DNA of 34,079 bases. Source: an uncultured bacterium (GTDB taxonomy: Bacteria; Omnitrophota; Omnitrophia; Omnitrophales; Aquincolibacteriaceae). Of the stretch, positions 8,612 to 25,900 are shown piece by piece (the stretch's first letter is position 1; every line of letters begins with the position of its first letter). The DNA is taken from assembly GCA_964585045.1 (NCBI GenBank), contig CAZPCF010000002.1:1-34079 (forward strand), given 5' to 3'. The translations under genes and the position numbers were made by a program. Under the pieces are notes generated by a model, which made no database searches, was not told the DNA's origin, and worked only from the letters and a program-made list of their open reading frames with translations.

Positions 8612-10096
8612 TTAAAGAAAAAGATCCCTCTCTCCCTTGCGGACACGTTCAAGGAATTGATAAAAGACGGGGAAACCCTGGGGATTTCTCGTCTTGATCT
8701 CTTCGAGCTCTTTTTCGAGCACCCGGAGCCCCGCTTCGCGCGTCGTGGGAGTCGCAAAATCATCCATCCATTCTTGAAACGTCAGCACGGCGTTCAGTTT
8801 GCAGAACTTCCCTTCCTGGCCGCTACGCAAAAGGTCCATGATGCATTTCCCCGTCCGGCCGCATCGATACCCGGCCGTGCAAAACGAAGTAATGTGCCCC
8901 ATTTCCGCAAAATCCCGAACCAACTCATCCAGGCTTCGCGTGTCGCCGAGCATGAACTGTTGGCGCTCGGATTCCTGCCCCTTCCCCTCTTCGCTGTAAC
9001 TTCCGATCCCGATCTTGGTGGAGGCATCGGTCTGTGTGATCCCGAGCCCGATCGCATCACGCCGCATTTGGGCAGTCTCACGTGCCGTAATGATCATGCC
9101 CGTGTAAGGGATGGCAAGACGGATGAGCAGAATGATCTTTTTGAAATCCTCGTCGGATACCTTATAGGGAGAATGTTCGGCATATTCGGAGTTAAGGGCC
9201 GGCTCCATGCGCGGGAATGACACGGTATGCGGCCCAATCCCCATTTTCGCTTCAAGGTGGATCGCGTGATAAAGGAGTGCCATCACCTCAAAGCGCCAGT
9301 CATAAAGCCCGAACAGGACCCCGATCCCCACATCATCGATCCCCGCTTCCATTGCGCGGTGCATGGCATAAAGCCGCCAGCGATAATCGGATTTGAGCGT
9401 CCCCTTCGGATGGAGCTTCGCGTAGGTCTCATGATGATAGGTTTCCTGAAATACCTGATAGGTCCCGAGCCCGCCGTCACGGAGGCGTGTGAGCTCTTCG
9501 ATTGACATCGGCGCAGCGTTCACATTGATGCGACGAATATTGCCATAACCATGCTTGGTCGGCGTCTTCACGTCATAGATCGTTTTCATGCTCTCAAGGA
9601 TATAATCGATCCCGGTCAGCGGATGCTCCCCGTAGACAGCAATGATGCGCTTGTGACCGATCTTTCCGGTCAGGCTCTCGGTCTCTTTACGGATCTCATC
9701 CATGGAAAGAACGCGGCGCTTTGCTTTAAGATTCTCATGTTTGAACCCGCAATAAGCGCAGTTATTAACGCAATAATTTCCCATATAAAGGGGTGCGAAA
9801 GTCACGATGCGGTTGTCGTAGACCTTTTTCTTGATCTGAAAAGCCGCAACCTCCATCTCCCGGAGCATACCGGGATCCTTCACTCGGATCAGTATCGCGA
9901 GCTCTTCCGGCGTAAGCGTTTGGATGGCAAGTGAGCGCGCGAGAACAGCACGCACGACGGATGCTCCGGGCTCCCGGGCCATTTCGATCTTTTTCCAGAT
10001 CGCGGCATCATCAATAAAATCGCGGCCCTGCTCGAGATAGCGGTTGATCTGATCCTGCTTGATACGCCCGGCGATCCAAGCAGTTTCGGCGGTCAT
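8612..10096 (-). CDS. hydG: [FeFe]-hydrogenase H-cluster radical-SAM maturase HydG (tyrosine lyase)
   Basis: YCVNNCAYCGF is the CX3CX2C motif in a ThiH-like core, with a C-terminal Fe-S domain (..SFCTAGYRCGRTGKC..KFC..). Length is 494 aa. The start overlaps the hydF stop as ATGA. Confidence 0.9.
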   Translation of the reverse strand: MTAETAWIAGRIKQDQINRYLEQGRDFIDDAAIWKKIEMAREPGASVVRAVLARSLAIQTLTPEELAILIRVKDPGMLREMEVAAFQIKKKVYDNRIVTFAPLYMGNYCVNNCAYCGFKHENLKAKRRVLSMDEIRKETESLTGKIGHKRIIAVYGEHPLTGIDYILESMKTIYDVKTPTKHGYGNIRRINVNAAPMSIEELTRLRDGGLGTYQVFQETYHHETYAKLHPKGTLKSDYRWRLYAMHRAMEAGIDDVGIGVLFGLYDWRFEVMALLYHAIHLEAKMGIGPHTVSFPRMEPALNSEYAEHSPYKVSDEDFKKIILLIRLAIPYTGMIITARETAQMRRDAIGLGITQTDASTKIGIGSYSEEGKGQESERQQFMLGDTRSLDELVRDFAEMGHITSFCTAGYRCGRTGKCIMDLLRSGQEGKFCKLNAVLTFQEWMDDFATPTTREAGLRVLEKELEEIKTRNPQGFPVFYQFLERVRKGERDLFL

Positions 10097-11355
10097 GACA
10101 GAACTTCCCTTGTTTTCATTTGACTGTCACGATAGGCTGCTATCGCCTCCGGGAATGGTTCAATAACACGTTCCAGCACGCCTTGAAGGTAGGAAATACA
10201 AAGCCCGTAATTCGTGATGGGAACGCCCTTCCGTTTCGCATGCTGGATCCTCGCGAGGGTTTCCCTCCGGGTTAACATACACGACCCGCATTGAATGATC
10301 AGTTTATAATTTTTGAGATCGTCCGGAAAATCGCGCCCCGCGCAGACATCGACCACGACCTCAAACCCAAGATACTTCTGGATCCACTTCGGGATCTTGA
10401 TGCGACCGATATCCCCCTCAATGGCATGATGACTGCAGGATTCGGCGATCAGGATCTTGTCGCTCGCTTTGAGCCTGTCGATCGCAAGCGCCCCTTTTGT
10501 CATTTCCGCAATATCTCCTTTGAGCCGCGACAAAAGGATCGAAAAGGTCGTGCATTTCACACCTGCAGGTGTCTCCGCCACCATCCGGTCCACGACCTGG
10601 GAATCGCAGACCACAAGGTCCGGAGACGTCTTTAATTTCAACAAGGCAGCCTTATATTCACTTTCCTTTACGACGAGCGTCATCGAATCATGGTCCAAGG
10701 CGTCACGGATCGCCTGGACTTGCGGCAGAATGATCCTTCCTTTCGGGGCTTCAAAATCGATCGGGATGATCAGCACCGCCAGCCCTCCTTTCGGCATGAT
10801 GTCTCCCAGCATCGCCGGGGCAGCCAAAAAATCCTCGGGGCACACCTCGAGCAAAAATTGTTTCAGGAGATTCACGGTGCCGTCACGTTTTGAACGATCC
10901 GTACTCGAGCAGATCAGAACTCTGGGGGTCTTTTGTTTCAAGTCCTGCAGAAAATGATCAGAAGGAGTTTTAAGGTCGCTCTTATTCACCACAAGAATAA
11001 GCGGACTTTTCCGGATCCCCGCTTCGCGGACCACTTCCTCTTCAAATTCCGTCCATTGATCCGCCTCGAGGATCAGCAGAGAAACATTCGACCGGTCAAA
11101 GATCTTCCGGGTCCGTTCGAGCCGTTTAGCGCCCAACACAGACACGTCATCCATACCCCCCGTATCAAGAAAAACCACCGGACCCACCGGCAAAAGTTCC
11201 ATGACCTTTTCGACAACATCGGTGGTCGTACCGGGTACAGGCGAGGTGATCGCCACATCCTGACCGGCCACCACATTGAGAAAACTCGACTTCCCGACGT
11301 TGGTGCGGCCAAAGATCCCGATCTGCAACCTTAAACTCTTAGGTGTGTTTTGCAT
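10093..11355 (-). CDS. hydF: [FeFe]-hydrogenase maturation GTPase/scaffold HydF
   Basis: G1 is GRTNVGKSS, G3 is DTGG and G4 is NKSD. The C-terminal cluster motifs are CSHH...QCGSC. Confidence 0.9.
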   Translation of the reverse strand: MQNTPKSLRLQIGIFGRTNVGKSSFLNVVAGQDVAITSPVPGTTTDVVEKVMELLPVGPVVFLDTGGMDDVSVLGAKRLERTRKIFDRSNVSLLILEADQWTEFEEEVVREAGIRKSPLILVVNKSDLKTPSDHFLQDLKQKTPRVLICSSTDRSKRDGTVNLLKQFLLEVCPEDFLAAPAMLGDIMPKGGLAVLIIPIDFEAPKGRIILPQVQAIRDALDHDSMTLVVKESEYKAALLKLKTSPDLVVCDSQVVDRMVAETPAGVKCTTFSILLSRLKGDIAEMTKGALAIDRLKASDKILIAESCSHHAIEGDIGRIKIPKWIQKYLGFEVVVDVCAGRDFPDDLKNYKLIIQCGSCMLTRRETLARIQHAKRKGVPITNYGLCISYLQGVLERVIEPFPEAIAAYRDSQMKTREVLS

Positions 11356-11453: not shown

Positions 11454-11702
11454 CTAGTTTTTCGTCAGCGCCGACTTTACGGAAACACCCTCCAGCGCGC
11501 CGAGCTTACCGGTCAAGCCTCCGAGTTGATCGGTCGTCATATCCACTACAAGGGTGATGATCGAAACGTTCTTTTCGTGGTACGGGATCCCCACCCGCGC
11601 CACAATATGATCCCCATAATCCGCGAGCACATGATTGACCTTGTCCGCGGCCTTCTTCCGATCTTCCACTACGATCCCGACGAATCCAACGCGTTTATCC
11701 AT
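11454..11702 (-). CDS. TM1266-family putative iron-only hydrogenase system regulator (small ACT/NikR-C-like protein)
   Basis: 82 aa, with VGIVVEDR...NHVLADYGDHIVARVGIPY...VSIITLVVD.T.D....LTGKLG. This matches my recollection of the TM1266 family. It sits directly upstream of hydF-hydG-hydE. SD is GGGAGGTGAT. Confidence 0.7.
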   Translation of the reverse strand: MDKRVGFVGIVVEDRKKAADKVNHVLADYGDHIVARVGIPYHEKNVSIITLVVDMTTDQLGGLTGKLGALEGVSVKSALTKN

Positions 11703-11730: not shown

Positions 11731-11762
11731 GAAAATCCCAGCTTCTTCGGAAAGAAGCTGGG
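11731..11762 (-). terminator. Rho-independent terminator/attenuator after the third receiver gene
   Basis: On the minus strand, CCCAGCTTCTT-TCCG-AAGAAGCTGGG forms an 11-bp perfect stem and is followed by ATTTTCGTTTTTAT. Confidence 0.6.
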
Positions 11763-11861
11763 ACCGGAAATTTTTCGATTTTTCCTTCCCTTGGCTTCAG
11801 GAACCTTGCGGCCCCTCTTCCTCAGAAAATTTGATCTGAAACAACCCGTTCAGATATTTTT

Positions 11862-12248
11862 TTATTTCTTGATGTGTGTTTCTACTGCCTTTAACAAAAC
11901 ATCCGGCTTGACCGGTTTTTCCAAAACCGCTTTGACCGGCAGCCAAGTTTCGTCCGGTTCATACTTGAAACCAATATTGGTGGCCTTACTGATCCCGGTC
12001 ACCGTAATGACGGGGACATCTTTGGTCTCCGCATCGTCATGCAGTTGACGCGCGATATCAAATCCCTCGGTATTATGAGCCATCATCACATCGAGCATGA
12101 TCAGATCTGGTCTTTCCATTTTCGCCTTTTCAAAGCCCTCTTCACCACTCTCAGCCATTACAACATCATATCCCCGGGCTTTTAACAAAGTCGACACGGA
12201 GTCCCTGAATTCATCGTCATCATCCACCACAAGAACTTTCTTTTTCAC
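11862..12248 (-). CDS. Stand-alone response-regulator receiver (REC-only, CheY-like) protein 1
   Basis: VVDDDD is the acidic pocket, LIMLDVMM carries the phospho-acceptor Asp, VITVTG carries the Thr, and LEKPVKP carries the Lys. There is no output domain. GTG 12248 is preceded by GGGGAGGGGG. Confidence 0.85.
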   Translation of the reverse strand: MKKKVLVVDDDDEFRDSVSTLLKARGYDVVMAESGEEGFEKAKMERPDLIMLDVMMAHNTEGFDIARQLHDDAETKDVPVITVTGISKATNIGFKYEPDETWLPVKAVLEKPVKPDVLLKAVETHIKK

Positions 12249-12348: not shown

Positions 12349-14100
12349 TCACTTGCGATACGCCAAACGGGCTTTATACCGTGTGTGAAGAAGATGTTCG
12401 GAATGTTCTCCCAAGGGTTTCCCGAGAAATTCCTTGTAAAGTTGTTGTACGTGCGGGTTCTCATGCGAACAACGCACCGTTTGGGCCTCATCATCCGAAT
12501 AAAGACCCCTGGCGCGCGCAATACGTAATTCATCGGTCACACCATAGGGCTGCCCGCCACCGCCCACGCAGCCGCCCGGGCAGGCCATAACTTCGATAAA
12601 ATGATACGGGAGCGGTTTGCCTTCCTTTTGCGCTTTCCGGACCTGATTAAGCACATGCTCCACGTTCGCCAAACCGTGCGCAACAGCGATCTTTACCTCC
12701 GCACCTTCGATGTTGATCGAAGTCTCCTTGATGCCTTTTAAGCCCCGGACATCCTCGAATTCAACTTTAGGAAGTTTTTTTCCCGTCATAAAAGCGTAAG
12801 CCGTTCGAAGCGCAGCTTCCATCACACCGCCCGTCGTCCCGAAGATCGTCCCGGCACCGCTGTAATCACCCAGAATGGGGTCACATTCTTCGTCCGGAAG
12901 ATTCGAGAAATCGATCCCCGCCTGTTTGATCATACGGGCGAGTTCCCGGGTCGTGAGTACCACGTCCACATCCTGGAATCCGGAGGCCGACATTTCGTGG
13001 CTGCGTGAGATCTCGAATTTCTTGGCCGTACACGGCATCACCGAGATCACCTTCATCTTTGCCGGATCGATCTTGTTCTTTTCCGCATAGTAGGTCTTGA
13101 CCAGCACTCCCATCATTTCATGCGGCGACTTCGTAGAAGAAAAATGCGGGATCATGTCATGATGGAATTTTTCCATAAAATCCACCCATGAAGGACAGCA
13201 GGTCGTGATCAGGGGCAGCACGCCTTTTCTATTTGTAAATCGTTCGATAAATTCACTCGCTTCTTCCATGATCGTGACATCCGCACTGAAATTCGTATCG
13301 AAGATCGCCTTGAAACCCATGCGCCGGAGCGCCGTATAGATCTTTTTCGTTACGTTAGCTCCGAGTGGAAATCCGAAGGCTTCTCCGAGCGCCACACGCA
13401 CCGCGGGAGCGATCTGGACCACGCAATATTGTTCCGGATCGCGAAGTGCTCTCCACGCGAGCACGGAATCGTCTTTTTCAAAGATCGCGCCGGTTGGGCA
13501 GTGGGCAGCACATTGGCCGCAGCGTACGCAAGGCGAGTCCGCGAGGCTGATATCTCCTGCAGGCGCCATCCGAGTATTGAACCCACGGTGAAGAAAGGTC
13601 AACGCCCAAACGTCCTGGACATTTTGGCAAACATCGACGCACCGGCCGCAATTAATGCATTTACGCGGCTCCAAAACAATATTGCCGGTTGAGTCATCCT
13701 TGGGGATGTCTTTGACTATTTTTTCGAAAAATTCTTCCCGGATCCCGAAATCCGCCACAAGAGACTGCAATTCGCAATTATTGTTCCGTCCACACGTCAG
13801 ACATTCGTTGGGATGGTTGGAAAGAAAGAGCTCCACCACGGTCCGGCGGATCGACACGATCTCGGGATCATGGGTAATGATATCCATACCTTCTACAAGA
13901 GGTGTGCAGCAGGCCCGGAGCATTTTTTTGGATCCTTTAACCCGCACAAGACAAATACCGCAAGCTCCCGAAGCGTGAAGGTATGAGTCCGGATGCTTGC
14001 AAAGCGTCGGGATCTTGATCTGCGCTTTCCGTGCCGCATCCAAGATCGTCGTATTCTCAGGGACTTCGACCTTGATTCCATTGATAAGGGCTTTAACCAT
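12349..14100 (-). CDS. hndD: [FeFe]-hydrogenase catalytic subunit, M3-type with C-terminal small-subunit-like domain (HndD/HydA of an NAD(P)-linked multimeric enzyme)
   Basis: The N-terminus has a 2Fe-2S domain, a His-ligated cluster region (HPNECLTCGRNNNC) and 2x[4Fe-4S] (CINCGRCVDVC, CVRCGQCAAHCP). H-cluster motifs are TTCCPSW, MPCTAKKFE and EVMACPGGCVGGGGQP. ATG 14100 has an AAGGA SD. Confidence 0.9.
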   Translation of the reverse strand: MVKALINGIKVEVPENTTILDAARKAQIKIPTLCKHPDSYLHASGACGICLVRVKGSKKMLRACCTPLVEGMDIITHDPEIVSIRRTVVELFLSNHPNECLTCGRNNNCELQSLVADFGIREEFFEKIVKDIPKDDSTGNIVLEPRKCINCGRCVDVCQNVQDVWALTFLHRGFNTRMAPAGDISLADSPCVRCGQCAAHCPTGAIFEKDDSVLAWRALRDPEQYCVVQIAPAVRVALGEAFGFPLGANVTKKIYTALRRMGFKAIFDTNFSADVTIMEEASEFIERFTNRKGVLPLITTCCPSWVDFMEKFHHDMIPHFSSTKSPHEMMGVLVKTYYAEKNKIDPAKMKVISVMPCTAKKFEISRSHEMSASGFQDVDVVLTTRELARMIKQAGIDFSNLPDEECDPILGDYSGAGTIFGTTGGVMEAALRTAYAFMTGKKLPKVEFEDVRGLKGIKETSINIEGAEVKIAVAHGLANVEHVLNQVRKAQKEGKPLPYHFIEVMACPGGCVGGGGQPYGVTDELRIARARGLYSDDEAQTVRCSHENPHVQQLYKEFLGKPLGEHSEHLLHTRYKARLAYRK

Positions 14101-14123
14101 AAAAGTTTCCTTAAGATGATGCC

Positions 14124-14188
14124 TGTCATTCCCGCGAAAGCGGGAATCCATTTTTTTGGATCCCCGATAAAAGCATTCGGGGATGACA
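14124..14188. repeat. Composite REP-like element with two adjacent hairpins (ATTCCCGC-GAAA-GCGGGAAT and ATCCCCGA-N9-TCGGGGAT), bracketed by GTCAT/ATGAC
   Basis: The element is inserted in the 120-nt hndC-hndD spacer. It creates the spurious peptides MDSRFRGNDR / IPAFAGMT / VIPAKAGIH / GSPIKAFGDD seen in the ORF track. Confidence 0.75.
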
Positions 14189-14220: not shown

Positions 14221-15960
14221 TTAGCTCCGGCTAATCGCACGCGGCTTGCAAACCTCAAAGCATTGACCGCAACGGGTGCATTTTGTCTGATCGATCAGAT
14301 AACCGCTTTCACGATTCCCGGAAATAGCGCCTACCGGGCAGGCCTTGAAACACATACCGCATTTCACGCATTTTTCGCTCATAATCCTGAACCGGATCAA
14401 TTTTTCACACTTGCAGGCCGGACACTTTTTCTTGTTCACATGAGCATCATATTCGGCGCGGTAATAGTGCAATGTCGAAAGCACCGGATTGGGAGCCGTT
14501 TGCCCCAGGCCGCAGAGCGACGCTTTTTGCATGGCGATCGAGATCTGTTCCAGCTGATCAAGATCTTTTTGAGTCCCTTCCCCGTCCGTGACTTTCCTGA
14601 GAAGTCTCAACATTTGCGTCCCGCCGATACGGCACGGAGCACACTTCCCGCAAGACTCATCCACGCAAAAGCCCAAATAGAATTTCGCGATATCCGCCAT
14701 GCAGTCATCCTCATCCATGACGATCATGCCGCCGGATCCCATGATGGAACCCATCTTTTGCAAACTTTCGTAATCCACCTTCGTTTGGAAAAATTCTTTT
14801 GGGATCACCCCGCCGGAAGGACCGCCGGTCTGGATCGCTTTGACGTTTTTCCCACTCATGGCGCCGCCGCAGATCCCATAAACGATATCTTCGATCGCGG
14901 TACCCATGGGGACCTCCACAAGACCTGAATTCTTCACTTTCCCGGTGACCGCGAACACTTTGGTCCCCTTGGAGCTTTCGGTCCCGATACCGGCGAACCA
15001 GGCCCCGCCTTTTATAAAAATGACCGGGATATTCGCCAGCGTCTCAACGTTATTGATACAGGTCGGTTTTCCCCAAAGCCCTTTAATGGATGGGAAAGGC
15101 GGACGGGGGCTCGGATAACCGCGCTTCCCTTCGATTGAGGCGATCAGCGCTGTTTCTTCACCGCACACGAAAGCCCCGGCGCCAAGCCGGATCTCCAGAT
15201 CTAAATTAAAAGACGAGCCCAGAATACCTTCACCCAGGATCCCGCGGTCGCGGCATTGCTGGATGGCCTTTTCGATCCTCTCGATCGCAAGCGGGTATTC
15301 CGCGCGAATATAGAAATACCCTTTGGAAGCACCGATCGCATAAGCTCCGATGATCATCCCCTCGATCACGGAATGCGGATCGCCCTCCAACACACTGCGA
15401 TCCATGTAGGCGCCCGGATCACCTTCGTCACCATTGCAAATGATATATTTCTGATCGCCCGGCGCCTTGCGCGTAATGTCCCATTTCAGCCCTGTTGGGA
15501 ACCCGGCGCCGCCGCGGCCACGAAGCCCGGAGGTTTTTATTTCCTGGGCAACCTTCTCCGGCGTATAACTGCTCAGAACCTTCGCAAGGGCCTGATATCC
15601 ATCCCGCGCGATATAATCCTCAATACTTTCCGGATCGATCACACCGCAATTGCGAAGCACGATACGAAGCTGTTTGGAAGGCTGCGTGATCGATTTACCT
15701 TCGACAGGCTTGCCGCCAATCACGCTTTCCAGAACGATCGCCGGGATATCATTTTCCTGGACGTTCGTATAGAGAAAGCTTTCCGGCAACACCCGGACAG
15801 TCATGCCTTGTCCGTAGATGCCAATATCCGCGACACGCACGAGCTGGACCTCATTCTCCAACCCTTTTTCCCTCAGGTTGTTGAGAAACACCCCGTAAAA
15901 GTCCCTCGTCTTATCCTTTCCGGTAATCGCCGTGTCTTTAATGAAAACTGTCTTCCCCAT
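14221..15960 (-). CDS. hndC: NuoF-like flavoprotein subunit (FMN/NAD(P)H-binding) of the multimeric [FeFe]-hydrogenase, HndC/HydB-type
   Basis: GLRGRGGAGFPTGLKW is the NADH/FMN site. ESCGKCAPCR...LCGLGQTAPNP is the N3 [4Fe-4S] site. The C-terminus has 2x[4Fe-4S] ferredoxin motifs (CVKCGMCFKACP, CTRCGQCFEVC). The N-terminal Trx-like domain has no Cys. Confidence 0.9.
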   Translation of the reverse strand: MGKTVFIKDTAITGKDKTRDFYGVFLNNLREKGLENEVQLVRVADIGIYGQGMTVRVLPESFLYTNVQENDIPAIVLESVIGGKPVEGKSITQPSKQLRIVLRNCGVIDPESIEDYIARDGYQALAKVLSSYTPEKVAQEIKTSGLRGRGGAGFPTGLKWDITRKAPGDQKYIICNGDEGDPGAYMDRSVLEGDPHSVIEGMIIGAYAIGASKGYFYIRAEYPLAIERIEKAIQQCRDRGILGEGILGSSFNLDLEIRLGAGAFVCGEETALIASIEGKRGYPSPRPPFPSIKGLWGKPTCINNVETLANIPVIFIKGGAWFAGIGTESSKGTKVFAVTGKVKNSGLVEVPMGTAIEDIVYGICGGAMSGKNVKAIQTGGPSGGVIPKEFFQTKVDYESLQKMGSIMGSGGMIVMDEDDCMADIAKFYLGFCVDESCGKCAPCRIGGTQMLRLLRKVTDGEGTQKDLDQLEQISIAMQKASLCGLGQTAPNPVLSTLHYYRAEYDAHVNKKKCPACKCEKLIRFRIMSEKCVKCGMCFKACPVGAISGNRESGYLIDQTKCTRCGQCFEVCKPRAISRS

Positions 15961-15975: not shown

Positions 15976-16326
15976 TCAATTAAGCTTCAGATCGTAGATC
16001 CGGTCGTTCACAAGCATCTTGCCGCCTACGTGTTTTTCCATGATCTTGATCGCAACTTCTTTATCCACTTTACCGTAAAACACCGTCGGCATATTCTTGA
16101 CATGGACTTCCATGAGCGGTTCCGCCGAACACATCCCTACGCATCCACACTTTTTGATCTCCACATCCGCGTTATGCTTACGGCTTTCCTCGACGAGCGT
16201 GTCGTAGACTTCCTTGGCCCCAGCCGCGATCCCACAGGTACTGTAACCTACCTTGATCCAGTTACGGTCGACCTCGCCGTGTTTCTGCTTGATGGATTCC
16301 AGGTCCTTTTTTGTCATTTTATTCAT
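15976..16326 (-). CDS. hndB: Thioredoxin-like [2Fe-2S] ferredoxin subunit, HndB-type
   Basis: 116 aa, with STCGIAAGA...KKCGCVGMCSAEP. SD is GGGAGGAAG. Confidence 0.8.
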   Translation of the reverse strand: MNKMTKKDLESIKQKHGEVDRNWIKVGYSTCGIAAGAKEVYDTLVEESRKHNADVEIKKCGCVGMCSAEPLMEVHVKNMPTVFYGKVDKEVAIKIMEKHVGGKMLVNDRIYDLKLN

Positions 16327-16344: not shown

Positions 16345-16833
16345 TCACGCAGCCACTTGGGCTTCGGCTTCTTCAGAATAATGCGCGATAATATCGCCGA
16401 TATCTTTTTTCTTCACACCGCCATAAACCTTCTCCCCGATCTTCAACACCGGCGCCAACCCGCAGCACCCCAAACAACGGACCATTTCCAAATGGAATTG
16501 GCCGTCCTTGGTCGTCTCTCCGGGTTTGACACAGAGGAGATGTTCCAACTCCGCCATAATTTCGGCACCCCCTTTAAGATAACAGGCCGTTCCCATACAA
16601 ACAGAGATCGTGTGTTTTCCCGGAGGGGTCAGGCGGAAAAAGTGATAGAACGTGATCACTTCATAGATCCGGGCAAGGGGCACATCCAGGATCTCGGAAA
16701 GTATGAGCGAAACTTCGCGCGGCACGTACCCGTAGCGGTTCTGGATCTCATGAAGGATCATGATGAGATTACCTTCTTTATCCTTCCATTTTTCGGTCAA
16801 GCTGACGATATTCGCCCGCATGGTTTCATCCAT
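16345..16833 (-). CDS. hndA: NuoE-like [2Fe-2S] subunit, HndA/HydC-type
   Basis: VCMGTACYLKG...RCLGCCGLAP is the NuoE CX4C...CX3C pattern. Confidence 0.85.
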   Translation of the reverse strand: MDETMRANIVSLTEKWKDKEGNLIMILHEIQNRYGYVPREVSLILSEILDVPLARIYEVITFYHFFRLTPPGKHTISVCMGTACYLKGGAEIMAELEHLLCVKPGETTKDGQFHLEMVRCLGCCGLAPVLKIGEKVYGGVKKKDIGDIIAHYSEEAEAQVAA

Positions 16834-16876: not shown

Positions 16877-17260
16877 CTACTTCAAAATTTCCTCGATGGC
16901 TTTAAGAAGCTTTTCCGGTTTGACCGGCTTTTCCAATACTGTTTTGACGGGAAGCCAATGATCATCGGCTTCAAAACCGAAGGGGAGGTTGAATTCCTTC
17001 CGGATCCCGGTGACCATTACCACAGGAATATGGGATGTGACCTCATGGCTTTTCAGCTGCCGCGCCACATCAAAACCTTCTGTTTTCCGGGTCATCATCA
17101 CATCCAGCAAGATCAGGTCCGGTTTTTCGCCTTGCGCCTTTTCAAATCCGTCCGTTCCGTTGTAAGCCGTAGCTGTGGCATACCCCTTCGCCGCAAGCAT
17201 TGCCGCGACAGCATCTGAAAACTCCTTATCATCCTCGATGATCAATATCTTCTTGGCCAT
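16877..17260 (-). CDS. Stand-alone response-regulator receiver (REC-only) protein 2, a close paralogue of REC 1
   Basis: IIEDD, LILLDVMM, VVMVTG and LEKPVKP are present. By-eye alignment to 11862-12248 is roughly half identical, including the unusual WLPVK-x-VLEKPVKP C-terminus. Confidence 0.85.
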   Translation of the reverse strand: MAKKILIIEDDKEFSDAVAAMLAAKGYATATAYNGTDGFEKAQGEKPDLILLDVMMTRKTEGFDVARQLKSHEVTSHIPVVMVTGIRKEFNLPFGFEADDHWLPVKTVLEKPVKPEKLLKAIEEILK

Positions 17261-17315
17261 TCCATTCCTCCGTCAATGATCCCTGTTGTTTTGATAATCC
17301 TGCTGGAGCACAGCA

Positions 17316-17699
17316 CTAACCCACCCGACGGATCAACTCCAACAAGGTGGCCGGTTTCACGGGTTTGTCCAAAACCCCTTTGACATTGGTCCAGCTCTGG
17401 ATCATTTTACTTTCCTTGTCCGTCATCGTCACACGTTTAAAATATCCCGTCAGAAAGATCACGGGGATATGCTTCAGCTTCTCCTCCCGAAACATCCTGT
17501 CCGCAACTTCAAAGCCCAGCATTTGGTTTTGCATGAGAACATCCAAAAGAACCAGATCCGGGAGCGTTTCCTGAACCTTTGAAAAAACTGCCTGCCCCTG
17601 GGTTTCATGGTCCACTCGATACCCTTCCGCTTCCAGGACATTCTGGCAGGCCTCGATAAAATCCAAGTCATCATCGACCATGAGGATTCTTTTGATCAT
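17316..17699 (-). CDS. Stand-alone response-regulator receiver (REC-only) protein 3
   Basis: MVDDD, LVLLDVLM, VIFLTG and LDKPVKP are present. ATG 17699 has a GAGGAA SD. Confidence 0.8.
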   Translation of the reverse strand: MIKRILMVDDDLDFIEACQNVLEAEGYRVDHETQGQAVFSKVQETLPDLVLLDVLMQNQMLGFEVADRMFREEKLKHIPVIFLTGYFKRVTMTDKESKMIQSWTNVKGVLDKPVKPATLLELIRRVG

Positions 17700-17721: not shown

Positions 17722-18294
17722 CTAAGCGACGGCCGCAAGCTCCTTCTTTGTTGAGGATTTTTTTTTGCACTGGCCGGTGCATTTCCGATATTTTTTCAGA
17801 ACCCGGCCGACTTTTTCCGGCACCATACGGACATGCACGTCATCGTTGACCTGCATCACAGGCGAAAGGCCGCAACATCCGAGGCAACGGGTGATATCCA
17901 AACTGAACATCCCGTCTGCCGTAACATCACCCTCTTCGATCCCGAGCTCCTTTTTCATTTTCTCCAGGATCCGCGCTCCGCCCCCGACATAACAGGCCGT
18001 TCCTTTGCAAACGTGGATCTTGTTACGCGCCTTAGGTTTCAGGGAAAAATAATTATAAAAAGTTGCCATACCGTAAATGTGCGCCGTGGGAACATCCATT
18101 TTCTCTGAAACAAAATCCATGGCTTCGCGGGAGATGTGTCCAAAGAGTTCCTGGACTTTATGAAGAACACCCATCAGATGTCCTTTTTTGTCCGCTGTCG
18201 GAGGCTTTGCTCTGATGAATCTCTCAAGTTCCTTGAATTTTCCCTGCCATTCATTAGGGATCACTTTTTTTTGAGCGTGAACTTTCATTTTCAT
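17722..18294 (-). CDS. NuoE-like [2Fe-2S] subunit (HydC-type) of the second [FeFe]-hydrogenase, with a Cys-containing basic C-terminal tail
   Basis: VCKGTACYVGG...RCLGCCGLSP is present. The tail is ..KKYRKCTGQCKKKSS. Confidence 0.85.
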   Translation of the reverse strand: MKMKVHAQKKVIPNEWQGKFKELERFIRAKPPTADKKGHLMGVLHKVQELFGHISREAMDFVSEKMDVPTAHIYGMATFYNYFSLKPKARNKIHVCKGTACYVGGGARILEKMKKELGIEEGDVTADGMFSLDITRCLGCCGLSPVMQVNDDVHVRMVPEKVGRVLKKYRKCTGQCKKKSSTKKELAAVA

Positions 18295-18312: not shown

Positions 18313-20100
18313 TTACTGAAACAAATTGATGGCCTCTTTAACGTTCGTCGGAACCCCGCGCGGGTTTCGCGAATGGTAATGAGTATGAAGTAGTTTGTGC
18401 GACATGGGTCCCAGCGGCTTTTTGAGGAACTCTTCGTAGATCCTGGTAATGTCGGGATTCAAATGAGCTTTCCGGATCGTTTTCTTCTCGTCAATATTGT
18501 AGAGACCCTCCGCGCGTTTTTTGTAGACACTTGTATTCAAAGCTTCGGTGTCCCCCTGAGGATAAGGTTGCCCGCCGCCTCCCAGGCACCCTCCCGGACA
18601 GGCCATGATCTCAACGAAGTGGTATTGCCGCTTTCCCTCCTGGACCTCCGTCAGCAGTTTATGCACGTTGACAAGCCCGGAGGTGACCGCCACCCTCACA
18701 TCCAAACCGTCGACAGGGATCGTCGCTTCTTTGACGCCTTCCAAGCCCCGGACCTGTGTAAAATTGATATTGGGGAGCTCTTTGCCCGTGATCACTTCGT
18801 ACGCTGTCCGGAGCGCTGCTTCCATAACGCCTCCGGTCGCGCCAAAAATGGGTGCCGCGCCGCTCGATTCTCCCATTGGGGTATCGAATTCGGACTTTTT
18901 GAGGCTGTTGAATACGATCCCCGCCTCTTTGATCATTTTGATCAGTTCCCGGGTGGTCAGGACAGCATCCACATCCTGGAACCCGCTGGATCGCATCTCG
19001 GGTCGCACGGCCTCGAATTTCTTGGCGGTACAGGGCATGATACTTACGCTATAGATCTTTGCCGGGTCGATACCGGCTTTTTTCGCGTAATAAGTCTTGA
19101 TCAGCACCCCCATCATCTGCTGTGGGGACTTGCAAGTCGAGATATTCTCCAGAAATCCCGGGTGAAAAGTTTCGCAGAATTTGATCCATCCCGGCGAACA
19201 CGAGGTGATCATGGGAAATTTTCCGTTATTCTTCAAACGGTGGATGAATTCATTTCCCTCTTCAATGATCGTAAGGTCGGCCGAAAATTGCGTGTCAAAA
19301 ATAAAATCAAAGCCCAGCATGCGAAGGGCAGTCACTGTTTCGTAGGTCATGTCCTTGCCGGGTTCGTTCCCAAAACCTTCACCGATCGCCACACGGACAG
19401 CCGGGGCGATCTGAACCATCACGATCTTTTCGGGGTCATGAATGTTGCGCCATACTTCGTCCGTCATGTCACGTTCCACAAGCGCTCCGGTGGGACAAAC
19501 GTTCACGCATTGCCCGCAATTCGTGCAAACACTTTCGCCAAGCCCCATCCCGTAAGCGGGAACCACGTTGGTCTTGAATCCGCGATGAGAAAAAGTAAGG
19601 GCATTCGCTCCCTGGATCTCTGAACAAACACGCACGCATTTACCGCAAAGGATACATTTTTCAGAGTCGCGGACCACCGAAGGCGAGGTGTTGTCCACCG
19701 GAAAGATCTTTCGCTCTCCTTCAAAGGAAAATTCTTTGAGACCCATTTGCTCCGAAAGCTCCTGCAGGTCACAATCCCCGTTCTTGCCGCAGATCTGGCA
19801 ATCTTTGGGGTGGTTGCTTAATAAAAGCTCAAGAATGTGTTTGCGGGATTTGAGTACCCCCGCCGAATGCGACCGGACCACCATGCCATCCCTCACCTGT
19901 GTGGCGCAAGCGGGCGGATACGTCTTCATCCCGTCGACTTCTACGATACAGACCCGGCAGCCTCCAAAAGAACTCAACTTCGAGTGGTAACACAATCGGG
20001 GGATACGTATCCCGATCTGATCGGCCGCTTCCATAATGGTAGAGCCTTCTGGCACGGTCACCGGAATTCCGTCGATCACCACTTTTGCCTCTTTATTCAT
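18313..20100 (-). CDS. Second [FeFe]-hydrogenase catalytic subunit (M3-type plus small-subunit-like domain) with a non-canonical L1 motif
   Basis: Its Fe-S domain series matches hndD (HPKDCQICGKNGDC, CILCGKCVRVC, CTNCGQCVNVCP). Motif L2 is MPCTAKKFE and L3 is EIMACPGGCLGGGGQP, but L1 reads TSCSPGW instead of TSCCPxW. ATG 20100 overlaps the upstream stop as ATGA. Confidence 0.85.
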   Translation of the reverse strand: MNKEAKVVIDGIPVTVPEGSTIMEAADQIGIRIPRLCYHSKLSSFGGCRVCIVEVDGMKTYPPACATQVRDGMVVRSHSAGVLKSRKHILELLLSNHPKDCQICGKNGDCDLQELSEQMGLKEFSFEGERKIFPVDNTSPSVVRDSEKCILCGKCVRVCSEIQGANALTFSHRGFKTNVVPAYGMGLGESVCTNCGQCVNVCPTGALVERDMTDEVWRNIHDPEKIVMVQIAPAVRVAIGEGFGNEPGKDMTYETVTALRMLGFDFIFDTQFSADLTIIEEGNEFIHRLKNNGKFPMITSCSPGWIKFCETFHPGFLENISTCKSPQQMMGVLIKTYYAKKAGIDPAKIYSVSIMPCTAKKFEAVRPEMRSSGFQDVDAVLTTRELIKMIKEAGIVFNSLKKSEFDTPMGESSGAAPIFGATGGVMEAALRTAYEVITGKELPNINFTQVRGLEGVKEATIPVDGLDVRVAVTSGLVNVHKLLTEVQEGKRQYHFVEIMACPGGCLGGGGQPYPQGDTEALNTSVYKKRAEGLYNIDEKKTIRKAHLNPDITRIYEEFLKKPLGPMSHKLLHTHYHSRNPRGVPTNVKEAINLFQ

Positions 20101-23100
20101 GACTCCACCTCCACCATTTCTTTGCGGTCGCAGCGTAAACACCGGTCCGCCTCTTCACAAGCCTTTTTCTTGGAATAACACCGCTCCACTTCTTTAAAAG
20201 TCCGGATCCGTTGATGATCCGGTAATCGGGCCGGTTCCGGACGGAAGCGGACAGCCACCTCGGCAGTGGGCTCTACATAGGTTACTTCATGCCGTGTGCC
20301 ACGTATGACAAAGCGATCATGCGCCATATCTTCTCCTTTAAAATAACGATCGATGGAGACTGCCGCCCGCTCACCATCTGCGATCGCTTCCACGACCGTG
20401 GCGCCTCCTGTAACAGCATCCCCCCCGGCAAAGATCCCTGGAATATTCGTCGCCAAAGTCACCGGATCCACTTTCAAAGTGCCTGCTTTGGTCACTTCCA
20501 TGTTTAAATTTTTCGACCTGAACTCGGAAAGCTGCGGTTCGGCCCCGATCGCCATGATCACAACATCCGCGGAAAGGGACACCCTTTCCTCCGTCTGAAC
20601 CGCTTTCCTTCTCCCGCTAAGATCAAATTCTCCCGGCCGCATGCGCACACAATCCAGTTCGGAAACCCTGCCGTCTTTGCCTTTGATCGCTATCGGGTTC
20701 AACAGGAAATGGATCCGGACACCTTCCCGTTCTGCCTCCGCGATCTCTTCCGAAAAAGCCGGCATCGCGTCCTTAGTCCTCCGGTAGACAATATTGACTT
20801 CTTTGGCCCCGTAACGAAGCGCAGTACGGACTACATCGGTTGCCGCATTTCCTCCTCCGACCACCGCTACTTTTTTCCCGGTCAGGACCAGCGGCTCTTT
20901 CCCGGCCGCCATCGCATAAACACCTTTGACCTTTTTCACTTTTGAGGTCCTGCAATATTTTAAAAATATCAGGCTGTTCATGACCCCCGAAAGATCCATG
21001 CCTGGGATCGAAAGCCCTTTTTCCTGCCACGCACCCATCCCGAGAAAGGTCGCCTTGAAACCCTGTTTCTTCAGCTGCTCGAGAGAAATGTCCCGGCCGA
21101 TCCGGACGCCGGTTCTGATCTTCACCCCGGCTTTTTTAATACGCTCAATGTCCCGGTCCAGGATCTTATGCGGCAGCCGGTATTCCGGGATCCCGAGCGC
21201 CAGCATTCCTCCGACAACTTTTTCAGCTTCAAAAACAGTGACTGAGTATCCACGCTTTGCGAGATGATAAGCGCAGGAAAGTCCCGCAGGACCGCTTCCG
21301 ACCACCGCTACCTTTTCGGGACGCTTGGGACCTTCCCAGGTCTTTAGGGGAACGTTGTATTTGTCCGCGTAATCCGCCGCAAACTGCTTGAGCCTCATGA
21401 TCGCGACCGATTCGTCCAATTTCCCGCGACGGCAATTCGCCTCACAGGGATGATGACACACACGGCCACAGACAGAAGGAAGCGGATTACGTTCCAGGAT
21501 CTTTGCCAAACTCTCCCGGATCTTTCCCTGGCGGATCAATCCCACATAGAGTGGGATATCAACATTCACGGGACACGCGTGTTGACAAGAAGCCACGAAT
21601 AATTCACCGCAGACGACCGCAGGACACCGCTTTTCCTTGATATGAGCTTCATACTCACTGCGAAAAAAACGGATCGTTGACAGGACCGGATTCGGAGCTG
21701 TCTGACCCAAACCGCAAAGAGACGTCTTTTTGATCGTATCGCCCAGATCCTGAAGCCGTTCGATATCCCCCGCTTGGCCCTTACCCGCCGTGATCCGGTT
21801 GAGGATCTCAAGCATCCGCTTTGTTCCCTCGCGGCAAGGAGTACATTTTCCGCAAGACTCATCCTGCGTGAATTCAAGAAAGAACCGTGCCACATCCACC
21901 ATGCAATCGGTCTCATCCATCACAATAAGTCCGCCGGAACCCATGATAGAGCCCGCTTCAACCAAAGACTCGTAGTCGACGGGTGTATTCAAATACTGCA
22001 CCGGCAAACAACCGCCGGACGGACCGCCCGTTTGCGCTACTTTGAATCTTTTATCGTCTTTGATCCCCCCGCCGATGTCAAAAATGATCTCTCCCAAAGT
22101 CGTTCCCATAGGTACTTCCACAAGCCCCGTATTCCTGACCTTACCCGCCAAAGCAAAAACCTTTGTTCCTTTGCTTTTCTCAGTCCCGATGGAAGCAAAA
22201 AATTGATACCCGTCCAAAATGATCACAGGAATATTCGCCCACGTTTCGACGTTATTGATCAAAGTGGGCTTCCCCCACAATCCCCTGACGGGCGGATACG
22301 GCGGACGGATCCGAGGCATCCCGCGTTCCCCTTGGATCGAATGGATCAAGGCTGTTTCTTCGCCGCACACAAATGCTCCGGCACCCAACACGATCTCAAT
22401 ATCAAAACAGAAGGAGGTACCAAAAATATTTTTTCCTAAAAGATTATGTTGTCTCGCCTGCCTGATAGCCCCCTTGAGACGTTCGACCGCCAAGGGATAT
22501 TCCGCGCGTATGTAAACGATCCCCTTGCGGGCACCGACGGCAAAACCTCCTATCGTCATAGCCTCGATCACCGAGAAGGGATCCCCCTCGATGGTGCTCC
22601 GGTCCATAAAGGCACCGGGATCCCCTTCATCAGCATTGCAAATAACGTATTTTTCGTCCGCTTGCTGGTCGGCCACATATTTCCACTTGGTCCCCGTTGG
22701 GAAACCGCCCCCTCCGCGTCCCCGCAGCCCGGATTTTGACACTTCGTCGATAACCCGTTCGGGAGAATACTCCGCCAGGACCTTTGCCAAAGCTTCGTAG
22801 CCACGCACACACAAATAATCCTGCAAAGATTCCGGATCGATCACGCCGCAATTCCTGAGTACGATCCTTTTCTGCTTGGTAAAGTAATCGATATCTCCGA
22901 ATATAAAACGTGACTTATCGGTAAGGCAATCCTCGCTCGCGGAATAGTGCTCCCCGTTGGGATGTTTCAGGGGTTTGTTCTTGACCAAATGGTTTAGGAC
23001 TATTTTTTTGGCCAACTTGATATCGACGTTCTCGTATTTGAAGGGAGGCCGCCCTACTTGAAAAACCTCAACGGTCGGCTCCAAATGACAACGCCCCACG

Positions 23101-23306
23101 CATCCCTTTTGCCCGATATGAACGTCCCGGATCTTTCTCCGGGCGATCTCACGCCTGAAAGTTTCCATAACGATCTTGGAGCCGGCTGCGATCTCGCAGG
23201 TCGACATTCCGATGTTGATACGGGTCGACGCGGTCCACTTTTCAATATTTTCGTGAATGGCCTTTTGTTTGATCTTTTTTAGCAATGACCTCGCATCCCC
23301 TGACAT
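20097..23306 (-). CDS. Tripartite fusion of a Trx-like [2Fe-2S] domain, a NuoF-like FMN/NADH module (HydB-type) and a GltD/NfnB-like FAD/NADPH oxidoreductase module (1069 aa)
   Basis: Residues about 1-110 carry MSTCEIAAGS...KGCVGRCHLEP. Residues about 150-590 carry GLRGRGGGGFPTGTKW, ESCGKCTPCREG and LCGLGQTAPNP. Residues about 600-1000 carry CGRVCHHPCEANC, VAVVGSGPAGLSCA, VAVVGGGNAATD and IFAGGDAVTG. The C-terminal tail is ..CEEADRCLRCD. Confidence 0.85.
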   Translation of the reverse strand: MSGDARSLLKKIKQKAIHENIEKWTASTRINIGMSTCEIAAGSKIVMETFRREIARRKIRDVHIGQKGCVGRCHLEPTVEVFQVGRPPFKYENVDIKLAKKIVLNHLVKNKPLKHPNGEHYSASEDCLTDKSRFIFGDIDYFTKQKRIVLRNCGVIDPESLQDYLCVRGYEALAKVLAEYSPERVIDEVSKSGLRGRGGGGFPTGTKWKYVADQQADEKYVICNADEGDPGAFMDRSTIEGDPFSVIEAMTIGGFAVGARKGIVYIRAEYPLAVERLKGAIRQARQHNLLGKNIFGTSFCFDIEIVLGAGAFVCGEETALIHSIQGERGMPRIRPPYPPVRGLWGKPTLINNVETWANIPVIILDGYQFFASIGTEKSKGTKVFALAGKVRNTGLVEVPMGTTLGEIIFDIGGGIKDDKRFKVAQTGGPSGGCLPVQYLNTPVDYESLVEAGSIMGSGGLIVMDETDCMVDVARFFLEFTQDESCGKCTPCREGTKRMLEILNRITAGKGQAGDIERLQDLGDTIKKTSLCGLGQTAPNPVLSTIRFFRSEYEAHIKEKRCPAVVCGELFVASCQHACPVNVDIPLYVGLIRQGKIRESLAKILERNPLPSVCGRVCHHPCEANCRRGKLDESVAIMRLKQFAADYADKYNVPLKTWEGPKRPEKVAVVGSGPAGLSCAYHLAKRGYSVTVFEAEKVVGGMLALGIPEYRLPHKILDRDIERIKKAGVKIRTGVRIGRDISLEQLKKQGFKATFLGMGAWQEKGLSIPGMDLSGVMNSLIFLKYCRTSKVKKVKGVYAMAAGKEPLVLTGKKVAVVGGGNAATDVVRTALRYGAKEVNIVYRRTKDAMPAFSEEIAEAEREGVRIHFLLNPIAIKGKDGRVSELDCVRMRPGEFDLSGRRKAVQTEERVSLSADVVIMAIGAEPQLSEFRSKNLNMEVTKAGTLKVDPVTLATNIPGIFAGGDAVTGGATVVEAIADGERAAVSIDRYFKGEDMAHDRFVIRGTRHEVTYVEPTAEVAVRFRPEPARLPDHQRIRTFKEVERCYSKKKACEEADRCLRCDRKEMVEVES

Positions 23307-25817: not shown

Positions 25818-25820
25818 TTA

Positions 25821-25838: not shown

Positions 25839-25848
25839 TAATAAGGAT

Positions 25849-25876
25849 AATATAGTCTATTAATTAAATAGGTCAA
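25849..25876 (-). promoter_or_regulatory. Sigma70-type promoter candidate for rex and the downstream gene string
   Basis: On the minus strand, TTGACC (25876-25871), a 16-nt spacer and TATATT (25854-25849). It sits in the only AT-rich gap of this region. Confidence 0.45.
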
Positions 25877-25882: not shown

Positions 25883-25900
25883 TTGTGATTTATTTCACAT
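25883..25900. promoter_or_regulatory. Rex operator (TTGTGA-TTTATT-TCACAT)
   Basis: A perfect TGTGA-N6-TCACA inverted repeat lies 7 nt upstream of the -35 element and 66 nt upstream of the rex start. It matches the published Rex consensus TTGTGAAnnnnTTCACAA at all core positions. Confidence 0.6.

Follow-up and report, generated by a model that had tools for sequence, protein, structure and literature searches.

A family of stand-alone receiver proteins associated with NAD(P)H-linked hydrogenase gene clusters in Omnitrophota and other, mostly uncultured, bacteria

How fermenters balance their redox state, and how much H2 reaches anoxic communities, is set by electron-bifurcating and NAD(P)H-linked hydrogenases. 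To our knowledge, the regulation known for these enzymes is limited to the redox-sensing repressor Rex and to sensory hydrogenases, the latter being poorly understood. HupR and HoxA, the regulators of the HupUV-HupT-HupR and HoxJ-HoxA systems that serve [NiFe] uptake enzymes, are NtrC-type proteins with DNA-binding domains. Here we describe three proteins, named REC-a, REC-b and REC-c, that are formed by a receiver domain and are encoded between and after two sets of [FeFe]-hydrogenase genes in a stretch of 34,079 nucleotides from an uncultured bacterium of the Omnitrophota (contig CAZPCF010000002.1, positions 1 to 34,079; hereafter the window). The aim of this arrangement would be the same as that of the known hydrogenase signalling systems, i.e., HydS-type (group C) enzymes with PAS, kinase or phosphatase partners, Rex, and the two systems mentioned above, in that the level or the activity of the hydrogenase is adjusted; however, in contrast to HupR, HoxA and HydS, the regulator is here a receiver on its own, the sensor is an extracytoplasmic Cache domain, and there is no sensory hydrogenase. 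Rex regulons are also found in clostridia and Thermotogales (PMC6391272).

A described receiver with a similar setting is MSMEG_2064/Rv3143, a mycobacterial orphan protein encoded with the nuo genes that was resolved by cryo-EM as a subunit of Complex I with its Asp buried, and that therefore acts by protein contact; it binds NuoB, NuoA, NuoC and NuoI at the membrane junction, it was reported to be specific to mycobacteria, and it is not known to have a cognate kinase (PMC10068793, PMC9274095). The three proteins of the window resemble it in being receiver-only, in having no DNA-binding domain and in being encoded in the operon of an NADH-linked redox complex, and they are placed in the operon in the same manner: their genes lie between or behind those for the hydrogenase subunits, a single terminator comes after REC-a, and the synteny is conserved. 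HydB, HydC and the N-terminus of HydA are homologous to NuoF, NuoE and NuoG of Complex I. On the other hand, the contacts of MSMEG_2064, NuoB, NuoA, NuoC and NuoI, are absent from HydABC, and the receivers described here have a co-encoded Cache kinase. The MSMEG_2064 chain was not among the PDB matches listed, and the likeness seen here is one of domain make-up and operon placement.

A second group with similar features is formed by the FATGUY-type Rec-only and Rec-inter proteins, i.e., MrrA, SdrG, Sma0114, CckA-Rec and CpdR (PMC9981736, PMC5964349). A missing alpha4 helix has so far been reported for Rec-only proteins of the Sma0114 and SdrG type and for CckA-Rec, whose beta4-beta5 linker varies (PMC9981736). 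The likeness with our proteins is partial and lies in the stand-alone receiver, the alpha4 that is missing or degenerate, as predicted for REC-b, and the T-G pair after beta4, with F-L-T-G-Y in REC-c. Nevertheless, the FATGUY proteins are alphaproteobacterial, are tied to HWE/HisKA2 kinases and to the general stress response, and have a variable linker, whereas REC-a and REC-b do not show the F..FA..Y pattern and have a near-invariant linker, and REC-c is predicted to keep alpha4. CheY is likewise a single-domain protein, and in its phosphorylated form it binds its protein target through the alpha4-beta5-alpha5 face, which is the usual output face of receivers; it differs in that its switch residue Tyr106, three positions before the beta5 Lys, is Val in the proteins described here, and in that alpha4 is predicted to be absent from REC-a and REC-b. 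No che or flagellar genes were found in the window.

At an E value of 1e-10 or lower there are 1918 homologues of REC-b, the best of which are 60-74% identical to it, have 126-133 residues and come from Omnitrophota, Sedimentisphaerales and unclassified metagenome-assembled genomes (MAGs); the motif W-x-P-V-K-x-V-L-E-K-P-V-x-P is present in 97 of the 120 best matches. The surroundings of the REC genes were surveyed in one genome per species (GTDB representatives), which gave 80 loci on which the proteins of the window were mapped by tblastn; the phylum names used below are those assigned by the depositors. For the statistics the family was defined by the strict motif WLPVKxVLEKPVKP, and a locus was taken as linked when HydA or any of the maturases HydE, HydF and HydG was encoded within the 10-kb flank. 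[FeFe]-hydrogenase or maturase genes were present within 10 kb in 25 of the 32 motif-positive loci and in 8 of the 48 motif-negative REC loci (Fisher p = 4e-8), therefore the linkage between these receivers and hydrogenases goes beyond chance. Both classes are undercounted, given that the "unlinked" motif-positive loci L013, L033 and L083 carry NuoE and/or NuoF beside REC, while L023, L027, L029 and L031, counted as "linked" and motif-negative, hold members of the family with a slightly different tail. The original prediction, made from the nucleotide sequence, had given the absence of a conserved linkage with hydrogenase genes in related genomes as a finding that would speak against it; what was found is that the tail-bearing receivers co-localise with hydABC or hnd genes and with the same Cache kinase, an arrangement that recurs in MAGs of approx. 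ten phyla.

The synteny is also conserved. At every locus where the REC protein is at least 50% identical and the contig is long enough, hydrogenase genes are found on the same strand, and the Cache kinase is present at each of these loci in which the sequence extends to its position. The order Rex, Cache histidine kinase, HndB, NuoF, HydA, NuoE, (HydG/E/F), REC was observed on one strand in a series of loci (L002, L004, L006, L007, L010, L012, L015, L017-L019, L024, L026-L028, L030, L031, L055, L072, L094 and L095) labelled as Omnitrophota, Planctomycetota, Fibrobacterota and Spirochaetota. Incomplete arrangements, or ones without Rex, are found in Vulcanimicrobiota (L020), Actinomycetota (L029), Lentisphaerota (L039) and Deltaproteobacteria (L033), and kinase-REC pairs with no visible hydrogenase genes in Aerophobetes and Acidobacteriota. 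The carriers from Planctomycetota belong to Phycisphaerae, Sedimentisphaerales, Planctomycetia and Pirellulales. When the neighbourhoods of three of the REC-b homologues were inspected, those in one Sedimentisphaerales genome and one Omnitrophota genome showed Rex, an sCache_3 kinase, HndB, NuoF, HydA, NuoE, (HydG), HydE and REC, and a third contig showed HydA, NuoE, REC and REC. The full cassette of L018 (Rex, kinase, HndB, NuoF, HydA, NuoE, REC) belongs to Anaerohalosphaeraceae bacterium U12dextr, which may be a culture usable for testing the system.

The position of each paralogue within the clusters also appears to be conserved. In L027, from the Planctomycetia, the order is Rex, kinase, REC, hndABCD, REC, HydF, HydG and HydE, which equals the succession of REC-b, set 2, REC-a and the maturases in the window. 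Locus L094 shows Rex, kinase, a fused NuoF::GltD protein, HydA, NuoE, a REC-c-like and a REC-b-like gene, and L095 reproduces nearly the entire architecture of the window: HypA, HypC-radical-SAM, Rex, kinase, NuoF::GltD, HydA, NuoE, REC-c-like, HydG, HydE, REC-b-like, hndABCD and HydF. REC-c-type genes follow NuoE of the NuoF::GltD-type sets (L094, L095, L001 and the window) and REC-b-type genes precede hndA (L027, L095 and the window), and because of this the placement argues for set-specific partners of the receivers. The REC-c subfamily is small, with approx. 20 clusters at 50% identity or more, and its named members are from Omnitrophota.

Members of the family are also encoded next to group-3b [NiFe] hydrogenases. 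In L025 (Ca. Omnitrophus fodinae), the closest relative seen for the window (78% identity for the NiFe alpha subunit, 67% for the HypC-radical-SAM protein and 65% for REC against REC-a), the orthologue of REC-a follows a group-3b operon in the order partial Rex, His-rich membrane protein, NiFe beta, gamma, delta and alpha subunits, protease, HypA, HypC-radical-SAM, REC and a kinase with multiple transmembrane segments. In L089 and L090 an sCache_3 kinase comes after the NiFe-3b operon, and next to it a family receiver fused to a pair of CBS domains (P0250) is encoded. This REC::CBS fusion, with the tail WLPVSRVMEKPIDP, lies at 10001-10852 in L089 and at 4215-5066 in L090, and an ACT_8 protein is encoded convergently downstream of it. 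NiFe-3b genes are found at 10 kb or less from REC in L009, L017, L029 and L083 as well, and they adjoin more distant REC-only genes in L046, L054, L056, L058 and L076. Taken together, Rex, kinase and REC look like a portable cassette placed around NAD(P)H-linked hydrogenase operons of several kinds.

The receiver domain fills the three proteins, which have no output domain in their 127-128 residues. The Pfam family Response_reg (PF00072) spans each of them as a whole, covering residues 5-123, with E values of 1.3e-18, 2.1e-19 and 1.3e-17 and with 67.6, 70.2 and 64.4 bits (cut-off 30.2) for REC-a, REC-b and REC-c, respectively, and nothing else of note matched; the three receiver-only genes are therefore where the original prediction had placed them. 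In NCBIfam they come closest to DivK-like or PhoB-like families, always below the cut-off, e.g., NF045717 (DVU0259/DivK-like) with 75.7, 69.1 and 52.4 bits against 160. The acidic pair DD at positions 10-11, the phospho-acceptor Asp53 (in LLDVMM), Thr84 and the beta5 Lys-Pro at K111/112 are retained in the three proteins, as had been anticipated, and this catalytic quintet is invariant or nearly so in 122 members of the family. REC-a and REC-b are 56% identical, and REC-c is 37-39% identical to either of them. The tails had originally been assigned the other way round: WLPVKxVLEKPVKP belongs to the proteins encoded at 16877-17260 and 11862-12248, and WTNVKGVLDKPVKP to the one at 17316-17699. 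Likewise, the C-terminal signature that had been considered unusual contains the canonical Lys-(cis)Pro of receiver strand beta5 (K111-P112, at the end of the predicted strand 105-110); a distinctive signature does exist, not in this KP tail but in the loop that replaces alpha4 in REC-a and REC-b.

This loop is the most characteristic part of the family. The AlphaFold2 model of REC-b, obtained with a 122-sequence alignment, has a predicted local distance difference test (pLDDT) score of 89.6 and a confident receiver fold with no helix between beta4 (residues 80-84) and beta5 (residues 105-110); residues 85-104 are predicted as coil, with pLDDT values of 59-77. A Foldseek search with this model retrieved generic receivers only (RR468, RpaA and DivK, TM-score approx. 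0.81-0.87). The closest solved folds are RR468 of the HK853-RR468 pair from Thermotoga maritima (TM-score 0.85-0.87) and DivK (0.80-0.83), to which REC-b is 28-30% identical and which differ from it in having a regular alpha4; we know of no link of RR468 or DivK to hydrogenases. In the 122 sequences the coil of residues 85-104 is near-invariant and is the best-conserved stretch of the family, with R87, M90, N91, L92, P93, F94, G95, F96, E97, D99, W102, L103, P104, V105 and K106 conserved in at least 90% each, and the loop consensus of REC-a and REC-b reads GIRKEMNLPFGFEPDxxWLPVK. A segment that becomes ordered on binding would look like this in a model, i.e., conserved and non-helical. A beta4-beta5 linker that is near-invariant across phyla points to a binding partner that is itself conserved, and speaks against neutral decay. 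The model of REC-c (pLDDT 88.8) has all five helices, with a short alpha4 at 94-102; its beta4 reads P-V-I-F-L-T-G-Y, and F-L-T-G-Y-F, which is invariant in the REC-c family, is a partial match to PFxFATG[G/Y]. In REC-a and REC-b, beta4 reads P-V-(I/V)-x-V-T-G-I, without either Phe and without the Tyr of the FATGUY motif.

Nearly all the genes of the window are on the minus strand (Table 1), and the three receivers are part of what appears to be a single transcription unit. The order is Rex box and promoter, rex, the sCache_3 kinase, hydrogenase set 1, REC-c, REC-b, set 2, REC-a and terminator. An exact match to TGTGAN6TCACA occurs once in the window, against 0.02 expected by chance, and is located 7 nt upstream of the -35 element of the best promoter-like site; no second Rex box was found in the window with up to three mismatches. 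The candidate promoter of rex has the top score (10/12, from consensus matching alone) within 7000-26500. The Rex of the unit is an apparently canonical protein, with 233.7 bits to the NCBIfam Rex equivalog (cut-off 138), the Pfam domains Put_DNA-bind_N and CoA_binding, and an intact GxGxxG motif; the 3' end of its gene overlaps the start of the kinase gene, as in translational coupling. The gaps that flank the REC genes have 22-100 nt with no convincing terminator, and the hairpin after REC-a, which ends the unit, has the longest stem in 7000-26500. Because the gaps are short, internal terminators are absent and one strong terminator follows REC-a, the approx. 14 kb from rex to REC-a can be inferred from the sequence to be one unit under the control of Rex. 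The terminator stops approx. 30 nt ahead of the start codon of the TM1266-like gene (region 11702-11765), which leads hydF-hydG-hydE. No promoter-like site was seen between the hairpin and this gene, and when the window was compared with Rfam in search of a riboswitch or attenuator near the terminator, a tRNA was the sole match. With the terminator lying just before the TM1266-like start, the maturase genes may depend on read-through, possibly regulated, or on a promoter that was not seen.

Table 1. Location of the genes and sites of the window that are discussed in the text.
Feature	Position	Strand	Remarks
hydE	7478..8569	-	H-cluster maturase
hydG	8612..10096	-	H-cluster maturase
hydF	10093..11355	-	H-cluster maturase
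TM1266-like ACT/NikR_C-like protein	11454..11702	-	"iron-only hydrogenase system regulator, putative"; downstream of REC-a
Intrinsic-terminator-like hairpin	11734..11765	-	14-bp stem and T-run; 3' of REC-a
REC-a	11862..12248	-	WLPVK family; 128 aa; GTG start after GGAGG ribosome-binding site; last gene before terminator
Set 2 HndD/HydA	12349..14151	-	true start probably ATG 14100
Set 2 HndC/NuoF-type flavoprotein	14221..15960	-	tblastn orthologues 54-66% identical
Set 2 HndB-like small thioredoxin-like [2Fe-2S] protein	15976..16326	-	weak 2Fe-2S_thioredx match, E = 1e-4
Set 2 HndA/NuoE-type subunit	16345..16833	-	as query, matches NuoE-type genes across loci
REC-b	16877..17260	-	WLPVKxVLEKPVKP family; 127 aa
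REC-c	17316..17699	-	diverged paralogue; 127 aa; tail WTNVKGVLDKPVKP; F-L-T-G-Y-F at beta4
Set 1 NuoE/HydC-type thioredoxin-like [2Fe-2S] subunit	17722..18294	-	2Fe-2S_thioredx E = 1.2e-47
Set 1 HydA, H-cluster subunit	18313..20100	-	mechanical open reading frame to 20142; likely start ATG 20100 after upstream stop
Set 1 flavoprotein, NuoF (Complex1_51K) fused to GltD-like NAD(P)H/FAD module	20097..23306	-	1069 aa; Pfam/NCBIfam
Sensor histidine kinase	23354..25213	-	sCache_3_3, HAMP, HisKA, HATPase_c; start ATG 25213 or ATG 25189
rex, redox-sensing repressor	25170..25817	-	first gene of unit; NCBIfam Rex equivalog, Pfam
Candidate promoter 5' of rex	25847..25876	-	TTGACC, 16-18 nt spacer, TATATT/TATTAT
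Rex-operator-like palindrome TGTGAAATAAATCACA	25884..25899	.	exact TGTGAN6TCACA match
Group-3b [NiFe] hydrogenase cluster and maturation genes	28746-32704 and 26680-28768		upstream of rex

With moderate confidence we propose that the receivers serve the hydrogenase system specifically, as stand-alone regulators cognate to the Cache kinase, and act by contact with a partner encoded in the cluster. According to this proposal, Rex would repress the unit of approx. 14 kb, transcribed as one, from its box TGTGAAATAAATCACA until NADH rises, as expected from what is known of Rex and from the observed position of box and promoter. The Cache kinase would sense an external ligand and phosphorylate Asp53 of the receivers, given that both co-occur in every cluster that could be assessed and are directly adjacent in L027, L038, L089 and L092. 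The receivers would in turn act through protein contact because they have no output domain; in REC-a and REC-b the contact surface would be a remodelled alpha4-beta5-alpha5 face with the loop in place of alpha4. A CheY-like output through protein contact, as originally suggested, is plausible by analogy. The tblastn searches with the three receivers found no fourth one in the window, therefore it has no response regulator with an output domain; that part of the original prediction stands, although other small regulators do exist there, i.e., the TM1266-like protein and a protein with a cyclic-nucleotide-binding domain alone.

As the target of this contact we tentatively prefer the hydrogenase complex encoded in the same unit, or the assembly of that complex, with the docking of MSMEG_2064 on Complex I as the analogy; Rex is nearly tied with it. 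In favour of docking on the hydrogenase, the REC gene comes directly after the last structural gene, the linkage persists in clusters that lack Rex, and the paralogues have set-specific positions. Several results weigh against the proposal as a whole or against this target. Three motif-positive loci (L022, L036 and L038) have no hydrogenase gene in the sequence at hand; a further one, L032, is uninformative on this point because its short contig stops within the kinase gene. The receivers are not unusually conserved, since in an all-against-all comparison of 15 complete loci their mean identity was 61%, against 74% for NuoF, 72% for HydA and 72-75% over NuoF, HydA and HndB, and the notion that REC is the most conserved protein of the cluster was dropped. 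The REC motif also occurs beside group-3b [NiFe] hydrogenases, both in L025 and in the REC::CBS fusions of L089 and L090, and a specific docking site on the enzyme becomes awkward because the NiFe-3b enzymes share no homologous subunit with HydABC. In a mirror-tree analysis of 15 loci, which is weak evidence, REC distances track those of HydA and HndB poorly, with negative partial correlations. Finally, a natural fusion of a family receiver to a hydrogenase subunit or to Rex was not found in either of two protein-set searches: a concatenate query for fusions to NuoE, HndB, Rex or TM1266 gave none in a set of 5.8 billion proteins, a weak negative for which 8000 word-sharing candidates were scored, and the top 150 of a profile search of 1.84 billion representatives were mostly hybrid kinases with multiple receivers. 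The by-products of the latter search were three REC-REC fusions (P0121, P0122 and P0125) and the REC::CBS fusion mentioned above. One candidate REC-NuoE fusion, P0249, was rejected as probably chimeric, with an open-ended gene at a contig end and an ArgB-like tail.

The alternative partner is Rex, in which case the two proteins would form a split response regulator: REC, phosphorylated or not, would bind Rex and alter the repression of the hydrogenase operon, the NADH-sensing repressor would be the DNA-binding output of the two-component system, the promoter would integrate the external Cache signal with the internal NADH/NAD+ ratio, and hydrogenase operons of both the [FeFe] and the [NiFe] class would be set by these two inputs together. 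We regard this as possible, if somewhat doubtful. Rex is the sole DNA-binding protein of the unit, and a hand count from the maps places it at the head of 18 of the 21 clusters whose sequence extends past the kinase, although it is missing within the flank in L033, L037, L038, L039 and L089. The rex stop codon overlaps the kinase start in the window and in L002, L004, L094 and L095, and Rex adjoins REC in L032 (Rex, REC, kinase) and in L064, where an exact Rex box (9902-9917) lies between the two genes. A transcriptional output would account for a cassette that brackets unrelated types of hydrogenase; Rex accompanies the NiFe-3b operon too, with the partial Rex that heads L025. Further exact Rex boxes were found 5' of rex in L002, L010, L026, L031, L032 and L067, 5' of NiFe-3b operons in L009 (4380-4395) and L017 (12282-12297), and 5' of the TM1266-hydFGE operon in L030 (19890-19905), which suggests a Rex regulon that would cover both hydrogenase classes and the maturases in those lineages. 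In the mirror-tree analysis the REC distances correlate best with those of Rex (r = 0.83, partial 0.69), a weak hint towards Rex and the kinase that comes from 15 related loci. On the other hand, we know of no precedent for a receiver that binds Rex, a single Rex has no obvious need for three diverged receivers, and the Rex of the window is canonical, with the features described above. Be that as it may, the original view that Rex takes care of transcription is not separable from the receivers, as Rex is a candidate target of REC because it is coupled to the kinase, is sometimes next to REC and shows the best co-variation with it.

The main rival to regulation by contact, and an unlikely one in our estimation, is that the receivers serve as intermediates, hubs or sinks in phosphotransfer, like MrrA/SdrG/Sma0114 or CheY2, with no direct contact with hydrogenase or Rex, in which case the phosphate from the Cache kinase would be drained or handed over to kinases or regulators encoded elsewhere. 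The window has three receivers for one kinase, a second kinase is encoded just 3' of REC in L012, L015, L020, L025, L037, L067 and L083, and REC-REC fusions exist; nevertheless, most clusters have one REC and one kinase, with no Hpt, ChpT-like protein or terminal regulator nearby. The absence of alpha4 has hitherto been reported for Rec-only intermediaries and for CckA-Rec, and the F-L-T-G-Y-F of REC-c is near the PFxFATG[G/Y] (FATGUY) motif, but the linker of CckA-Rec is variable (PMC9981736) whereas the one described here is near-invariant across phyla, and REC-a and REC-b have V-T-G-I instead of F-A-T-G-Y. A pure sink, which the original prediction had offered as an option, is unlikely as a general role because most clusters pair one REC with one kinase and contain no further regulator from which phosphate could be drained, and it would leave the strict synteny with the hydrogenase genes unexplained. 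It is highly improbable that the receivers act on H-cluster maturation, through HydE, HydG, HydF or the TM1266-like protein, and not on transcription or on the finished enzyme. Clusters with maturase genes do have REC beside them: it lies between HydE and HydF in L004, L006, L019 and L021, after HydF in L011, L023 and L028 and before it in L027, and TM1266-hydFGE follows REC-a in the window, as a TM1266-like gene follows REC in L004, but in L007, L010, L018, L024, L026, L031 and L094 REC directly follows NuoE and the flank contains no maturase gene, the NiFe-linked members have no HydEFG nearby, and a strong terminator separates REC-a from TM1266.

We rate the receivers as a new, well-delimited stand-alone family with a new conserved association with hydrogenases. 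In the searchable full texts, which leave out many subscription journals, we found no report in which a REC-only protein or a Cache kinase is described as a conserved member of hydABC/hnd or NiFe-3b clusters; a neighbourhood survey may have mentioned one earlier, and Poudel et al. (2016, BBA) reportedly analysed hydrogenase gene neighbourhoods. The association is robust, it bears on the regulation of H2 metabolism in widespread uncultured anaerobes, and the arrangement points to a signalling input into hydrogen metabolism. The cassette of Cache kinase and dedicated receiver, present in mostly uncultured lineages, would be an extra, externally driven layer of control. Docking of REC on the enzyme would turn the single mycobacterial case of a receiver that is a subunit of a redox complex into a general principle, and docking on Rex would be a new route for two-component signalling to DNA. 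In addition, the motif NLPFGFEPDxxWLPVKxVLEKPVKP is a practical marker for annotating such clusters in metagenomes.

The sensor kinase of the unit matches sCache_3_3 with E = 2e-31 (Pfam) and has its H-box, SHELK, at residue 406. Its Cache domain lies between two hydrophobic segments (residues 14-43 and 301-336) and is therefore placed outside the cytoplasm, in agreement with the original prediction. A PDB sequence search with the Cache domain, intended as a guide to the ligand, was uninformative and retrieved two ligand-binding domains of chemoreceptors at a marginal E of approx. 1e-3.

In hydrogenase set 1 the flavoprotein with fused NuoF and GltD modules takes the place of HydB; its N-terminal region of approx. 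150 residues, which has no domain match, could be HndB-like judging by position only. Similar long NuoF proteins are present in L029, L030, L033, L094 and L095, and the fusion suggests an NADPH-linked or otherwise non-canonical bifurcating enzyme. Set 2 has the gene order hndABCD, and its HndB-like protein has orthologues in all the complete clusters. The HydA proteins of sets 1 and 2 match Fe_hyd_lg_C with E = 3e-98 and 1.2e-95, and the NCBIfam model "NADH-dependent [FeFe] hydrogenase" with 869 and 805 bits (cut-off 765), and that of set 2 is 66% identical to HydA of L027. Both belong to the catalytic group A, NADH-dependent class and have no PAS domain, therefore no HydS-type sensory hydrogenase is found in the window by Pfam and NCBIfam, as had been stated originally.

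The TM1266-like protein matches its Pfam family with E = 5.7e-32 and TIGR03959 with 105.9 bits (cut-off 60.8), and the homologue that follows REC in L004 is a distant one. Orthologues of hydE, hydF and hydG adjoin REC in many loci, and matches to HydF domains of Pfam were recorded for the hydF orthologues of L004 and L095.

Several genes outside the unit deserve mention. In the maturation part of the group-3b [NiFe] cluster, after a short HypA of 80 residues, a protein of 433 residues (26680-27981, minus strand) joins a HupF/HypC domain to a radical-SAM/BATS enzyme of the HydE/BioB type; the same fusion is present in L025 (5810-7168, Ca. Omnitrophus fodinae, 67% identity) and in L095 (212-1513), and we are not aware that a function has been described for such a HypC-fused radical-SAM enzyme. 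A membrane protein of 237 residues (25952-26665, minus strand), whose gene separates rex from the NiFe maturation genes, has no Pfam match and shows a His-rich loop, HVHLHVHADGEVHRHTHVHQEGHAHLH; a homologue with 29% identity heads the NiFe operon of L025 (432-1046), and the protein may be a nickel transporter. The protein with a cyclic-nucleotide-binding domain alone (32818-33291, minus strand, 157 residues), in which no HTH was detected and which has no obvious output, is encoded directly upstream of the gene for the NiFe-3b beta subunit. At the other side of the window, a tRNA-Leu gene (anticodon GAG) is located at 6686-6767 on the minus strand, between a phosphomannomutase-like gene and a small coiled-coil-like open reading frame.

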